Origin: a virus
Taxonomy: Duplodnaviria; Caudoviricetes
Virus record (IMG/VR): IMGVR_UViG_3300028591_000013
Location: 39,569 to 103,568 of that record
Direction: 5' to 3' (one strand)
Length of the DNA stretch: 64,000 bases
This document shows, in pieces, positions 4,527 through 32,610 of this stretch. Every line of letters starts with the position of its first letter. The stretch's first letter is position 1. Below the pieces are notes generated by a model. That model searched no databases. It was not told the origin of the DNA and saw only the letters and a program-made list of their open reading frames with translations. A program made the translations under genes and the position numbers.

Positions 4527-5465
4527 TTAAGCAGCTTTTTTCATTGCTTTCTTAGAAGCTAATGTTTGCTGCTTTGCGTTCTTAGCACCTATTAACGGAC
4601 GCTTTTGAGTTCGCTTATGGTTCAACAAGTCTGCGTCCAGAATTGTCGAATCTTTCTTCATTGCGACCTCAGCAGCTTTCTCTGCATTTTTGTACAGTTT
4701 ATCCTCGGAACTAAGTTTTGGAAATGAGACATCGTGTCCTTTTCCATTTACATCGTTAACTTCTGCTATTTTAATAGCATCCATCTTCTTGTCTTTAGAA
4801 TTAACACGATTTCCCATTATATCTAATTTGTTGTAACACGAGACGACGAAATCTCGGAAACGTTGCTCTGCATTAAAGCGACGCTGCTCCCAATCCTCTA
4901 CTTTATCGAAGAGGTCCTGATTAGGCTTTGGGTTCTTCTTGTCCCACTTCTCGAGTTTGTGGGCAACAAGTTTCTCCATATAAGCCTCTTTACACATTGG
5001 TTTGATTGTGTACGGATAGTTGGGAAAGTACTTTTGAAAATCATTGCGCTTTTCACGCTTAATCTTCTTCACGCTCTCGTCTTGTGGAGCGTATGACTTC
5101 CAGTTACTATACTTACGTGCTTTACACTTAATCAGTCGCTTAGGCTGTTTAAAACCACCTTCTGGTATTATCCATAGACTACCGCTATTTTTCTTGAATT
5201 CCTCCAGAGGAATCCAATCATACGCAGTGATAGATGCTCCATACATACCTGTTACAGTATGAGGATTGGTTTGCATAAACTTATTACCAGTAAGAGGATT
5301 GGTTATGACCATACTCTCATCAATCTTAGCTCCATAGCGCTTATGTTCTACTACTGAAGATATTGTCTTGGTAATATTACTAACGGTAAACTTGCGACTA
5401 ATGGATGCAAGTTGATTGACGTGAATTTTCACGCCTTTTATGATACGATAGTTCTTCATACTCAC
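4527..5465 (-). CDS. Hypothetical basic protein ending in KKAA
   Basis: 312-aa Lys-rich ORF. Confidence 0.75.
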   Translation of the reverse strand: MSMKNYRIIKGVKIHVNQLASISRKFTVSNITKTISSVVEHKRYGAKIDESMVITNPLTGNKFMQTNPHTVTGMYGASITAYDWIPLEEFKKNSGSLWIIPEGGFKQPKRLIKCKARKYSNWKSYAPQDESVKKIKREKRNDFQKYFPNYPYTIKPMCKEAYMEKLVAHKLEKWDKKNPKPNQDLFDKVEDWEQRRFNAEQRFRDFVVSCYNKLDIMGNRVNSKDKKMDAIKIAEVNDVNGKGHDVSFPKLSSEDKLYKNAEKAAEVAMKKDSTILDADLLNHKRTQKRPLIGAKNAKQQTLASKKAMKKAA

Positions 5466-5473
5466 CTCCTTTC

Positions 5474-6247
5474 TTATGCAGCCTTTTTAATGCCCGTAGA
5501 AGCCTTTTTCGAGGCCATAGAGACCTTCTTAGTCTTCTTCTGGGTAGTTGTACCAGCGGCCTTACGTTCGGCCTTCAGATCGGCTTTTTGAGCCTTCGAT
5601 AGAGCTGCTATATTACAGCGTTTACGGAACTTCATATATTCTTTACCTTCACGCTTTTTAATATCCATAGCAGCTTTACGAGCCTTCTTAGCGGCTTTAG
5701 CAGCAGCTTTTTTCTCAGCCTTAGTCTTTGACTTGGTCTTAGACTTATGCTGTTCTTGAACAGGCAAGATTGGTGGCTTTTTCTTCACATACGGATAGAT
5801 CTTAGATCCAGGAGTCATAATACTGCGGATAGTACCGAGAGTATCCTGGTCTGCTTCTATGTAGAAGTAGTTAGATCCCTGCATCTTCCACACAATGCCC
5901 TCATTCTTAAGAGCTTGTGTATTCATGTCCTTGTCATTAGGATTGAACGTAACGAGCACTAGATACTGATTAGGAGTATCAATCTGCTTAATCAGTTCCT
6001 CGACCTTGACCTTAGTCTGTTCTTCTGTCAATCCCATACGCTTGGCACGACGCTTCAGTGCACCAATACGGAAGTTCTTGTACTGTTCTTCACGCTCCTT
6101 TTTCAGGGCTTCCTTGTCTTTGAGCGTTTTTACTTTGCCAGTAGGAGTCTTATCCTTCTTGACGTTAACGGTTGCAAAAATATGCTTAGTATCTTGTTTT
6201 GGGGTCTGACCATTGTCAGTTGCCACCTTAAAATTCTTCTTACTCAT
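5474..6247 (-). CDS. Hypothetical Lys/Ala-rich (histone-tail-like) protein ending in KKAA
   Basis: 257-aa ORF containing KKAAAKAAKKARKAA; TATCAAAA directly before the ATG. Confidence 0.75.
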   Translation of the reverse strand: MSKKNFKVATDNGQTPKQDTKHIFATVNVKKDKTPTGKVKTLKDKEALKKEREEQYKNFRIGALKRRAKRMGLTEEQTKVKVEELIKQIDTPNQYLVLVTFNPNDKDMNTQALKNEGIVWKMQGSNYFYIEADQDTLGTIRSIMTPGSKIYPYVKKKPPILPVQEQHKSKTKSKTKAEKKAAAKAAKKARKAAMDIKKREGKEYMKFRKRCNIAALSKAQKADLKAERKAAGTTTQKKTKKVSMASKKASTGIKKAA

Positions 6248-6295
6248 TTTGATAATGTATTAAATTAAACATGTTATCTGGCCTCTTTGCCATTG

Positions 6296-6366
6296 TTGGA
6301 CCACCGAGATTCGAACTCAGACGATAGGACCCAAATTCCTATGTACTACCATTATACTATGGTCCA
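6296..6366 (-). tRNA. tRNA-Gln(UUG)
   Basis: Cloverleaf: acceptor TGGACCA/TGGTCCA, anticodon arm TAGGA-ATTTGGG-TCCTA, T arm CTGAG-TTCGAAT-CTCGG. Confidence 0.9.
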
Positions 6367-6396
6367 GTGTGGTTAGTGTCACTCTAACCTATTATT

Positions 6397-6948
6397 TTAT
6401 GCTGCCATATACATCTTGAAGTCTTCATTGCTATTATCATCGAGCTCAATTGCTGTATCAGTATTGAACTTCTCAAGCATAGCATCGAACTTATTAGCCT
6501 CAAGCTGCTGGTCATGGATCAGCTGAGCAATCTTCTCCTTAGAGAACGTCTCCTTCTGAGCCAGAGCCTTCTTACCCTTCTGTGCCTTAGTCTTCGGATC
6601 CAGAGTCTTAATCATCTTCAACAGAGTGATGTCCTCCTTAGCCTCACAGGCAGAGAAAATAGCATAATAATTAGTCTTCTTAAACTCCTCATAGTTAAAT
6701 GAGGTTGTACCCATATTCAGGTACTGAATCATGCCCTTAAGCTTGATTCGCTTCTCGCGCAACTGCTGGATAGTGTTATACAGAGCCTTGAGGTCAAAGC
6801 CCGAACCCTTACCTGCTGCTATAGCCTTGTTCGACATTACATTCTCCTCTCGGATAATGTGGCTATACTTCGTGATCTCCATATCGATCTTCTTCTTAAT
6901 ATTCAGAATATTACTTGCATTCATCTTTATCTTGATTGTCTTTGTCAT
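6397..6948 (-). CDS. Hypothetical coiled-coil protein ending in MAA
   Basis: 183-aa ORF with strongly biased codon usage. Confidence 0.75.
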   Translation of the reverse strand: MTKTIKIKMNASNILNIKKKIDMEITKYSHIIREENVMSNKAIAAGKGSGFDLKALYNTIQQLREKRIKLKGMIQYLNMGTTSFNYEEFKKTNYYAIFSACEAKEDITLLKMIKTLDPKTKAQKGKKALAQKETFSKEKIAQLIHDQQLEANKFDAMLEKFNTDTAIELDDNSNEDFKMYMAA

Positions 6949-7010
6949 AAGCGTCTTGATTTAAAAAGTGAAACATGTTAATTATCTGAATTCGAGATCA
7001 TTTACCTACG

Positions 7011-7225
7011 TAACTTATAGTGGTTGCGAGCTACTATAAGTTAAAATTAGACTATGATCTGCATATAGTCCCCCGCAGAGTCCAACAGATCATAGTCTAA
7101 TATATTTTTATTTTTGTTTTCGAATATTCTAATCAGGATGTACAATATCCAGATAGTCTAAACTAACACACGTACCACGTATAGACAAGCCCGCAGACCC
7201 TCTATACAACCCCCGCAGAGGTTTG
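7011..7225 (-). promoter_or_regulatory. Structured leader with long hairpins and three CUGCGGG motifs
   Basis: Perfect 16-bp inverted repeat at 7046-7061/7086-7101, second hairpin at 7011-7043, and CCCGCAG (plus strand) at about 7072, 7190 and 7212. Confidence 0.5.
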
Positions 7226-7236
7226 AACGTACCCGT

Positions 7237-7839
7237 TTAGTGTCGACCACCCTTCCAACGTACATTTAAGACTTCAAATACATCTCCAACAGCATCCCGA
7301 ACGGTTAGGAAACCGTCTGGGTGTGTGTGTCGAGGCTCAACCTCAACTTCGATGCCACCGGCATACGGGCATGAGTTAATATGGTGGTGAGGAGGATTAT
7401 CCTTCTTCAGTCCCTTATCACGCCAATATCCGTCATCGACTATGTGTCGACATACGTCGAAGAATCTATGGAGAATATTCTGATCCTTGCTATGAATACC
7501 CTGCAAAAGTACCTCTCGCGATAGTCCCTCTGCAATAGCTTCATGTGCTACAGGATTAGTTGTCATCTCCAGCAATGCGTCCCACACCTTGAGATAAAAA
7601 TCATCAAATGTGATGTGGTCATAACACCCTATAAGTTTATTCCAGAAACCGCTAAACCCTCCCCAAGAATACTTGGCGAAGTATATTCGCTCTTCTTTTC
7701 CGTCAATCTTATATTGTGTATATTCTCGTGCTTGAGCCATTAGTCCCAAACAGACTTTCTGTCGAATTTTCGGTTCCTTCAACAGATAGCCGATCAAGTC
7801 TTCAGCACCAAGCACTCCTTGTGCCTGGTTCTCTGCCAT
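7237..7839 (-). CDS. Hypothetical protein
   Basis: 200-aa ORF. Confidence 0.75.
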   Translation of the reverse strand: MAENQAQGVLGAEDLIGYLLKEPKIRQKVCLGLMAQAREYTQYKIDGKEERIYFAKYSWGGFSGFWNKLIGCYDHITFDDFYLKVWDALLEMTTNPVAHEAIAEGLSREVLLQGIHSKDQNILHRFFDVCRHIVDDGYWRDKGLKKDNPPHHHINSCPYAGGIEVEVEPRHTHPDGFLTVRDAVGDVFEVLNVRWKGGRH

Positions 7840-15145: not shown

Positions 15146-15440
15146 GATGCAGGCACTTAGGTAGCCTGCTCACCGACTTCACGCTGCCTCCTTGAGGCCC
15201 GTGTAGTCAACGATGTTCATATCGCCGTTTAATTTTATGTCAAAGCGCTTAATGTCTTTACTTCCTTCGCCCGTCAAAATCCTGTCGAGCCCGGAATGCC
15301 CACATGAGGCCTACGAGTGGGCTGCGTAGATAGTCACCCCTTATTCGCTCTATGTGACAGATAGAACTCGGGACTTGCCGTGGACCCGGAGGGATTCGAA
15401 CCCTCGTCCGAACGAAATACCTCAGACACGCTAAGATTTC
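15146..15440 (-). ncRNA. ssrA: Circularly permuted two-piece tmRNA; tag peptide (A)GDMNIVDYTGLKEAA
   Basis: Acceptor piece (..GGAC-GAGGG-TTCGAAT-CCCTC-CGGGTCC-A, 3' end at 15381) lies upstream of the coding piece (GGGCTCG-ACAGGATTTTGAC, 5' end at 15292). The 7-bp acceptor stem has G3:U70 and A73. Tag ORF at 15226-15179. Outer boundaries are approximate. Confidence 0.85.
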
Positions 15441-32533: not shown

Positions 32534-32610
32534 TGCTTAGTGGTGTATGATTCCTAGCACGTCGGGCTCTAACCCCGGAAGATCTGGAGATGAACCGGAC
32601 TGGGCAACCA
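32534..32610 (+). tRNA. Amber suppressor tRNA(CUA), probably charged with Gln
   Basis: Acceptor TGCTTAG/CTGGGCA (U1-A72), D stem GTGT/GCAC, anticodon arm TCGGG-CTCTAAC-CCCGG (CTA at 32569-32571), T stem TCTGG/CCGGA, encoded A-CCA end. Confidence 0.85.

Follow-up and report, generated by a model that had tools for sequence, protein, structure and literature searches.

Can a phage that reads the stop codon TAG as sense also carry a transfer-messenger RNA (tmRNA) gene of its own, and if so, from where does such a gene come and what might it be for? These questions are raised by a short locus in the window analysed here, a stretch of 64,000 nucleotides that makes up the last 64 kb of a complete viral genome of 103,568 bp with direct terminal repeats, from a crAss-like phage of the rumen type. 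A first-pass annotation, made from the letters alone, had read the locus as a circularly permuted, minimal two-piece tmRNA of a recoded phage. Permuted tmRNA genes are a textbook example of a rare rearrangement; they have been seen in three bacterial clades and in mitochondria. We consider it likely that the locus is a functional two-piece tmRNA gene of a TAG-recoded crAss-like phage, descended from a one-piece tmRNA of Bacteroidota.

Anatomy of the permuted gene

The minus strand of the window holds a circularly permuted tmRNA gene between positions 15432 and 15146, found by ARAGORN and by reading of the strand. ARAGORN called five RNA genes in the window. The permuted tmRNA is one of these and lies on the minus strand; its tag, GDMNIVDYTGLKEAA, and its UGA stop are identical to those proposed before. 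The 3' half of the tRNA-like domain is encoded upstream of the 5' half on a single strand, and the order of transcription is T arm and 3' acceptor half, spacer, 5' acceptor half, helix 2 and tag. The first-pass annotation had let one half end at 15381 and the other start at 15292, with an intervening segment of 88 nt, which reading of the minus strand confirmed. It had given the locus as 15146-15440; this range does contain the gene, but its 5' limit is arbitrary, and conserved pairing begins at 15432.

The acceptor piece extends at least from 15432 to 15381 (minus strand, as are all features of the gene; ARAGORN, pairing and covariation). It begins with one strand each of helix 2c (AGCGU, 15432-15428) and helix 2b (GUCU, 15427-15424), followed by an internal loop, the helix 2a strand UUUCGUUCG (15417-15409) and GAC. 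Then come the T arm (15405-15389, stem GAGGG/CCCUC, loop UUCGAAU), the 3' strand of the acceptor stem (CGGGUCC, 15388-15382) and the discriminator A (A73) at 15381. The bases after A15381 are CGG and CCA is not encoded. The 88 nt from 15380 to 15293 are the spacer, predicted to be excised. The coding piece (15292-15146; ARAGORN, alignment, RNAalifold and cofold) opens with the acceptor 5' strand GGGCUCG (15292-15286) and a D-loop analogue ACAGGAUUUUGA (15285-15274), which, as ACAGGAUUUUGAC, is host-like and ends in GAC. These are followed by the helix 2a strand CGGGCGAAG (15273-15265), a conserved GAAGUAA (15264-15258), the helix 2b strand AGAC (15257-15254) with a bulge AUUAA after it, the helix 2c strand GCGCU (15248-15244), an A/U-rich linker of 17 nt (15243-15227), the tag reading frame with its stop (15226-15179; ARAGORN, and kept in 14 lineages) and a post-tag hairpin region (15174-15149).

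With roughly 55 nt in the acceptor piece and roughly 147 nt in the coding piece, the two together come to about 200 nt. GGGCUCG and CGGGUCC form seven pairs including G3:U70, the alanine determinant named in the annotation; its reading of the gene as a minimal permuted tmRNA holds. The proposed helix 2 pairing of CGGGCGAAG with UUUCGUUCG was likewise found, and when the two predicted pieces were cofolded without constraints, the inter-piece acceptor stem and the distal part of helix 2 were recovered.

The tag comprises 15 codons, GDMNIVDYTGLKEAA (15226-15182), from a GGC resume codon (15226-15224) to the UGA stop (15181-15179). Two hairpins lie within it, one at the resume codon (GGCGAU, 15226-15221, with AUCGUU, 15214-15209) and one further on (GCCUC, 15198-15194, with GAGGC, 15190-15186); both covary. 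Codons 2 and 5 of the tag change together (GAU/AUC, AAU/AUU, AAC/GUU), which suggests that RNA structure moulds its N-terminal half. A resume codon within a conserved hairpin is not known to be typical of characterised tmRNAs such as that of E. coli.

Two-piece tmRNAs with reduced sets of pseudoknots are known, hence the absence of PK1-PK4 alone does not exclude a gene from the tmRNAs. The annotation had seen no clear PK1, and PK1 is indeed absent from the gene: only the 17-nt linker stands between helix 2 and the resume codon. PK1-PK4 of the standard tmRNA are all missing, and a single hairpin is found between the tag and the following tRNA, GCAGGC (15169-15164) with GCCUGC (15154-15149) around a conserved loop UACCUAAGU; its stem covaries. 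A candidate stem of 4 bp of the H-type, GGUG (15174-15171) with UACC of the loop (15163-15160), has its four pairs formed in each of the 12 sequences with letters at all of these positions, the sole compensatory change being AGUG/UACU in cr130, and we regard the small pseudoknot after the tag as a weak candidate. Pairing of the loop UACCUAAGU with the internal loop of the acceptor piece (AGGUA) or with the AUUAA bulge (CAUU/AGUG) was rejected, as neither covaries and they break in L121, L008 and cr273.

Relatives and covariation

Relatives on crAss-sized contigs and records were collected in three ways: viral contigs were scanned with the T-arm/acceptor signature and, independently, with a pattern of the 5' half, and deposited phages were searched by BLAST. 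The resulting alignment comprises 14 distinct sequences from crAss-like genomes; cr131_1 and the truncated L118 also belong to the family. Three hits of the second scan (L115, L117 and L119) were chance matches, and the 475-aa neighbour protein, used as a probe for relatives, returned one locus only. The subgroup L011, L016 and L021 is missed by ARAGORN.

The first-pass annotation had called a tmRNA in a crAss-like phage unusual, which was overstated: two-piece phage tmRNAs have been published (PMC9004378), and six RefSeq crAss-like phages (cr7_1, cr124_1, cr130_1, cr131_1, cr272_1 and cr273_1) carry the annotation 'transfer-messenger RNA, SsrA'. The four records that we read (cr273_1, cr7_1, cr130_1 and cr131_1) belong to Suoliviridae/Oafivirinae and to the genera Burzaovirus, Chuhaivirus, Cacepaovirus and Buhlduvirus, and in each the tmRNA gene is located upstream of a phage sigma-factor gene. 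The RefSeq genes share with the window the permutation, the architecture and related tags (GNINVVDYTGLQEAA, DNVNNIVDYTNVA, DNYNVVDYTHVA). However, the nearest of them has about 86% nucleotide identity to the window gene over half of its length only, their spacers are unrelated to that of the window, and they are followed by a truncated tRNA-like element where the window has a real tRNA(CAU). The tmRNA gene itself is not new: the lineage is a variant of the permuted tmRNA, and the window gene adds one more member to this lineage, which is annotated yet undescribed. A search for literature on tmRNA in crAss-like phages or Crassvirales, or in connection with stop-codon recoding, returned mentions in methods sections only, subscription journals lying mostly outside its range; the searchable library held no paper on the crAss-like tmRNA lineage, its host-type origin or its architecture, and the supplements of the tmRNA database paper hold no phage rows.

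Several further contigs deserve mention. L120 (IMGVR_UViG_3300045988_066459, 7500-7650) has a T-loop GGCAGAG instead of UUCGAnU, with the rest of the gene intact, and may be a decaying or rewired copy. In L116 (IMGVR_UViG_3300028591_000134, about 6170-7330, minus strand) the T-loop of a permuted family member is split by a group I intron (RF00028, 65.9 bits) that carries an ORF for an HNH-type endonuclease, the inferred exon junction being GAGGGUUCGAAU|CCCUCC; a second group I intron is found at 5366-5568 of the same contig. Permuted tmRNAs with the Bacteroidota-type T-arm/acceptor signature were also seen in other IMG/VR contigs of 4-129 kb (L002, L004 and L014; L006, L010, L015 and L019; L012). 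Their tags differ (e.g. ...RVAVAA, ...RERLAA) and CCA is encoded in some. Of these, L006, L010, L012, L014 and L015 were called by ARAGORN, L002 and L004 were read by eye, and L019 is truncated. The permuted host-type form may thus extend beyond crAss-like phages.

As a check the annotation had named covariance models of permuted tmRNAs. The Rfam model RF04321 (tmRNA_permuted), which according to its authors was built solely from alpha-, beta- and cyanobacterial sequences (PMC11915505), matched the window gene over the full length of the model (positions 1-213, E 4.6e-6), but at 38.9 bits this copy stays below the cut-off of 47. Two relatives exceed this gathering threshold (L113 with 64.5 and L114 with 49.5 bits), and cr273_1 reaches 46.2 bits.

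In an alignment of nine two-piece sequences 90.3% of the cells were paired, compared to 39-48% in slid controls, and the covariation score was reached by none of 500 shuffles; 15 pairs had changed on both sides. Together with the E value of the model match, this places the tmRNA match of the window far beyond chance. Helix 2a differs in sequence in each lineage and keeps its complementarity (seven of nine pairs compensatory), and helices 2b and 2c covary in the same nine sequences. An automated helix scan misses helix 2a owing to the alignment register and cannot exclude other pairings. In the tRNA-like domain compensatory changes are seen between lineages at acceptor pairs 5:68 and 6:67, the T stem comes in six complementary variants, and G1, G2, G3:U70, C4 and A73 are invariant. 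When the coding piece alone was given to RNAalifold with no structure imposed, exactly three hairpins were returned and the first ~76 columns stayed open, as is expected if those columns pair in trans. These three hairpins are 95.3% paired over the 14 sequences (35-47% when slid), with 8 of 13 pairs compensatory.

The annotation had held that a tag frame not conserved in homologs would speak against its reading. The open frame up to a stop is intact in all 14 lineages, with a codon starting with G at its beginning, or with A in one subgroup, and indels between subgroups are in-frame only (6 and 9 nt). In its C-terminal half the tag is conserved, reading DYTGL(K/Q)EAA or DYT(H/N)VA, and it always ends in AA or VA. 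The window tag ends in EAA, the host tag in LAA. Tag stops are TAA in eight lineages, TGA in six and TAG in none. The UGA stop of the window, which had been taken as a safeguard against amber suppression, is present, but it counts for little as such: TAG ends the tag in only 5 of 71 host Bacteroidota tmRNAs, which is no meaningful difference from 0 of 14, and we dropped the avoidance of UAG as evidence.

Origin of the lineage

A search of 185,579 species genomes returned the exact 29-nt T-arm/acceptor signature in 88, of which 87 are Bacteroidota. All 71 signature genomes in which ARAGORN called the gene have a one-piece tmRNA of 365-400 nt with tags such as GENNYALAA, and the Gly start that the annotation had likened to Bacteroidota tags is indeed shared. 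The phage sequences L008 and L017 agree with the first 22 nt of Prevotella/Bacteroides tmRNA at all but one position (21 of 22), and the resume contexts are similar. Common to the one-piece tmRNA of Bacteroidota (RF00023; Prevotella, Bacteroides) and the phage gene are the 29-nt signature, the resume context AUUA.CU-GGC, a tag starting with Gly and an unencoded CCA. They differ in that the host gene is in standard order, measures 365-400 nt, has pseudoknots and encodes a tag of 9-10 residues ending in YALAA, whereas the phage gene is permuted, comes in two pieces of about 200 nt and encodes 11-15 residues ending in EAA or VA. In the tmRNA database, among 29,415 Bacteroidota assemblies, 24,380 standard genes stand against 48 permuted ones.

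In the usual model of permutation a gene is duplicated in tandem and its outer halves are then lost. For the permuted tmRNAs of Alphaproteobacteria, of a betaproteobacterial lineage and of cyanobacteria, PMC11915505 and PMC9004378 cite Keiler 2000 and Sharkady & Williams 2004. These two-piece tmRNAs (RF01849-RF01851, merged in RF04321) have the same gene order as the phage gene, with a tRNA-like domain and a tag ORF, and maturation by tRNA-processing enzymes is assumed for them as for the phage gene. In contrast, the phage gene has a domain of the Bacteroidota type (GGGC start, UUUGAC, GUCCA end), lacks PK1-4, is phage-borne and belongs to phages whose hosts have a one-piece tmRNA. The shared GGGC start, UUUGAC and GUCCA end argue for an origin separate from the alpha-, beta- and cyanobacterial permuted lineages. 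Descent from these three clades was rejected: the signature is Bacteroidota in 87 of 88 genomes and one-piece wherever called, and the beta_tmRNA model matched only the tRNA-like core of the window, with 31.7 bits against a threshold of 84. Judged from the sequences, the phage gene is probably derived from a Bacteroidota-type tmRNA that underwent a permutation of its own and lost the pseudoknot region.

Other phages carry two-piece tmRNAs as well; among 18,146 genomes 53 ARAGORN calls have been reported, and marine or aquatic ones account for 50 of these (PMC9004378). Those of marine phages (OM43 phage Melnitz, pelagimyophages) resemble the window gene in that phages encode them, in their permutation and in being called by ARAGORN, and no SmpB has been reported from these phages. 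However, they are of the alphaproteobacterial type and none has been linked to stop-codon recoding; Melnitz has a glutamine riboswitch (PMC9004378).

Processing, function and the recoded genome

How might such a gene work? A single precursor would be transcribed from the minus strand as part of an early/middle, non-recoded gene block, and host tRNA-processing enzymes would cut it at three tRNA-like sites. RNase P would cut 5' of G15292, a 3' endonuclease or trimming would act after the discriminator A15381, to which a host enzyme would then add CCA, and a further RNase P cut 5' of the tRNA(CAU) would free the 3' end of the coding piece. Acceptor and coding piece would be held together by the acceptor stem and the long helix 2. 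Host AlaRS would charge the RNA via G3:U70 and A73, and SmpB would deliver it to stalled ribosomes, where translation would resume at GGC and add GDMNIVDYTGLKEAA. This SmpB would have to be that of the host, since no SmpB gene was found in the genome of the window or in five other carriers (six genomes, G000-G005).

The spacer ranges from 17 nt (L011/L021) to 197 nt (L121) across lineages and its sequence is not conserved; it behaves like a segment to be removed. The spacer of the window (15380-15293) is about 92% identical to that of L008, though the acceptor stems and helix 2a of the two differ, and it is unrelated to the spacers of cr273_1, L017 and cr7_1. Such a pattern suggests recombination or module exchange, and the patchy likeness argues against a conserved function of structures inside the spacer. 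CCA is never fully encoded in the aligned phage lineages, as in host genes.

At its other end the coding piece runs directly into the tRNA(CAU), as the annotation had noted. This tRNA (15144-15070, minus strand; ARAGORN, and 66.2 bits with the Rfam tRNA model) starts 4 nt past the post-tag hairpin, and in relatives a tRNA-shaped element stands at the same spot: a 6-7-bp acceptor stem with a canonical T arm lies within about 25 nt of the coding piece in 14 of 14 lineages. Its body, from the acceptor 5' strand to the T arm, often measures 12-28 nt, compared to 42 nt in the full tRNA of the window. In three lineages the element scores as a tRNA (cr273_1 with 53.6 bits, L121 with 48 bits, and cr7_1 as 'tRNA-Cys(aca)' by ARAGORN). 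The nearest relative, L005, has a truncated element in this slot and its tRNA(CAU) further downstream, whereas the slot of the window is taken by the full tRNA(CAU). Processing of 3' ends by tRNA-like elements is known elsewhere, and the arrangement fits an RNase P cut that would set the 3' end of the coding piece, as the annotation had suggested. The tRNA(CAU) is 77% identical to tRNAs of Stx phages that are annotated variously as Met or Ile (ileZ/ileX). Rather than a tRNA-Met, it could be a tRNA-Ile of the lysidine type, which would read AUA.

Contigs from three sheep-gut RNA libraries contain the locus at 90-99% identity. They are assembled contigs that span the spacer, in which precursor RNA and DNA carry-over are inseparable and whose depth cannot rank segments. 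In one of them an Illumina adapter directly abuts 15381, the predicted cleavage site after the discriminator, which we take as a weak hint of processing. A scan of the minus strand upstream for sigma-70 promoters, which does not cover promoters of Bacteroidota or phages, returned nothing. A conserved non-coding block lies upstream of the acceptor piece (about 15600-15505, minus strand; ACCCACAA...GCGUCAGAGAGCCUGUAAAUAGCCUUAAAU...CUGAUCA) and is common to the flanks of cr273_1, L008, L113, L114, L120 and cr7_1. In most lineages a UACAA(A/G) motif, located just 5' of helix 2c, follows CUGAUCA at a distance of 11-13 nt; in the window and L005 this distance is about 45 nt longer. The block may be the promoter or leader of the tmRNA precursor.

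Would the locus have to be a tmRNA at all? It could be a scrap of a host ssrA gene, rearranged and drifting, that the phage picked up, for instance by integrating at a site linked to ssrA. Integration at tmRNA genes is common and fragments of such genes occur in prophages (PMC9004378), and one relative, L120, has the degenerate T-loop described above. However, extensive compensatory change keeps every helix, which largely refutes the idea, and the position upstream of a sigma-factor gene in four named Oafivirinae genera and the intact tag frame in 14 of 14 lineages are not what a drifting scrap would display; we find such a passenger scarcely credible. Hardly more persuasive, and in our view very improbable, is a role as processing scaffold only, with the tRNA-like modules serving as signals for RNase P and 3' cleavage in a non-coding or tRNA transcript and the 'tag' left untranslated. 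Processing does not require G3:U70, A73 or a host-type resume context, yet these are conserved or invariant; moreover, indels in the tag come in multiples of three and the frame always closes with a stop codon. The hairpin that constrains the N-terminal half of the tag, with its covarying codons 2 and 5, and the location of the locus in an ORF-free stretch beside tRNAs would suit a scaffold.

The same reading frame bears on the idea of a decoy, in which the phage RNA mimics host tmRNA and soaks up SmpB, AlaRS or EF-Tu, or outcompetes the host tmRNA. A pure sponge needs no frame, yet frame, stop and in-frame indels are kept in 14 lineages, and a C-terminus of Ala-Ala or Val-Ala is still tmRNA-like. 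If it were a decoy, stalled products would receive a non-degron tag (EAA/VA and not LAA) or none, and quality control would be redirected, not boosted. The C-terminus of the phage tag is indeed unlike the near-invariant YALAA of the host, the tRNA-like domain is nearly identical to that of the host, as a competitor would need, the phage is without its own SmpB, and the tag-less tmRNA of mycobacteriophage DS6A has been reported to inhibit endogenous tmRNA (PMC11915505). We regard a decoy as improbable, and competition and real tagging would be compatible with each other. Returning to a functional two-piece tmRNA, we infer that it would be processed, charged and used for tagging, and that an extra need for rescue might arise once amber suppression reads through TAG stops. 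Against a functional gene speak the score of the window copy below the Rfam cut-off, the missing PK1-PK4, the resume codon inside a hairpin, the EAA end of the tag and the T-loop of L120, a sign that some copies may be decaying.

The genome around the gene is recoded, as had been claimed: plus-strand structural genes are rich in in-frame TAG, with up to 51 TAGs per frame (in one of 5,069 codons). In-frame TAG is nearly absent from the minus-strand block, to which the tmRNA belongs together with the tRNAs and an ECF-type sigma factor; the tmRNA itself lies within about 1 kb without ORFs. Late-strand ORFs stop with TAA or TGA only, and in a crude list 7 of 51 early-strand ORFs end in TAG. In each of the seven carrier genomes tested, long frames on one strand together contain 144-397 in-frame TAGs, and the tmRNA is encoded on the opposite strand; these seven form one clade, hence the association is confounded by descent and we do not count it as support for function. 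It is compatible with a rescue of ribosomes during the code switch, which the annotation had suggested. A candidate amber-suppressor tRNA(CUA) is located at 32534-32610 of the window (plus strand), missed by ARAGORN and Rfam, and is syntenic and homologous with the tRNA(cta) that ARAGORN called in G005 and G001. Its acceptor stem has 7 bp (U1-A72), its anticodon stem bears the loop CUCUAAC and CCA is encoded; the T-loop (AGAUGAA) and the D-loop are non-canonical. Another pairing of tmRNA and amber suppressor in one phage is seen in L003 (IMGVR_UViG_3300021387_000463, 412,753 bp), where a tRNA with CUA anticodon lies within 5 kb of a one-piece tmRNA with the tag AENVDSPAYEYAIAA.

It might be tempting to go further and to see in the gene a separate, phage-born permutation and one of the smallest tmRNAs to encode a tag, with three tRNA-like sites for its maturation and a functional coupling to a switch of TAG to Gln. 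We consider this full reading unlikely. If it were true, the amber suppressor, once on, would cause TAG-ended messages of the host and of the early phage genes to be read to their 3' ends, and the phage would supply a suppression-proof rescuer whose tag is without the LAA degron, some host tmRNAs (5 of 71) having a tag that stops at UAG. For annotation, pipelines label the gene already, yet the standard covariance model leaves some copies below its threshold and ARAGORN misses one subgroup. If permuted tmRNAs have a further origin in phages of Bacteroidota, the loss of PK1-4 and the tRNA-shaped 3' processing signal would show that trans-translation can do with very little RNA, and the phage tmRNA would be a compact natural scaffold for studies of SmpB and ribosome recognition. 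The gene is found in an abundant group of gut and rumen phages that switch TAG from stop to sense, and how these phages cope with read-through and stalled ribosomes would be testable there.
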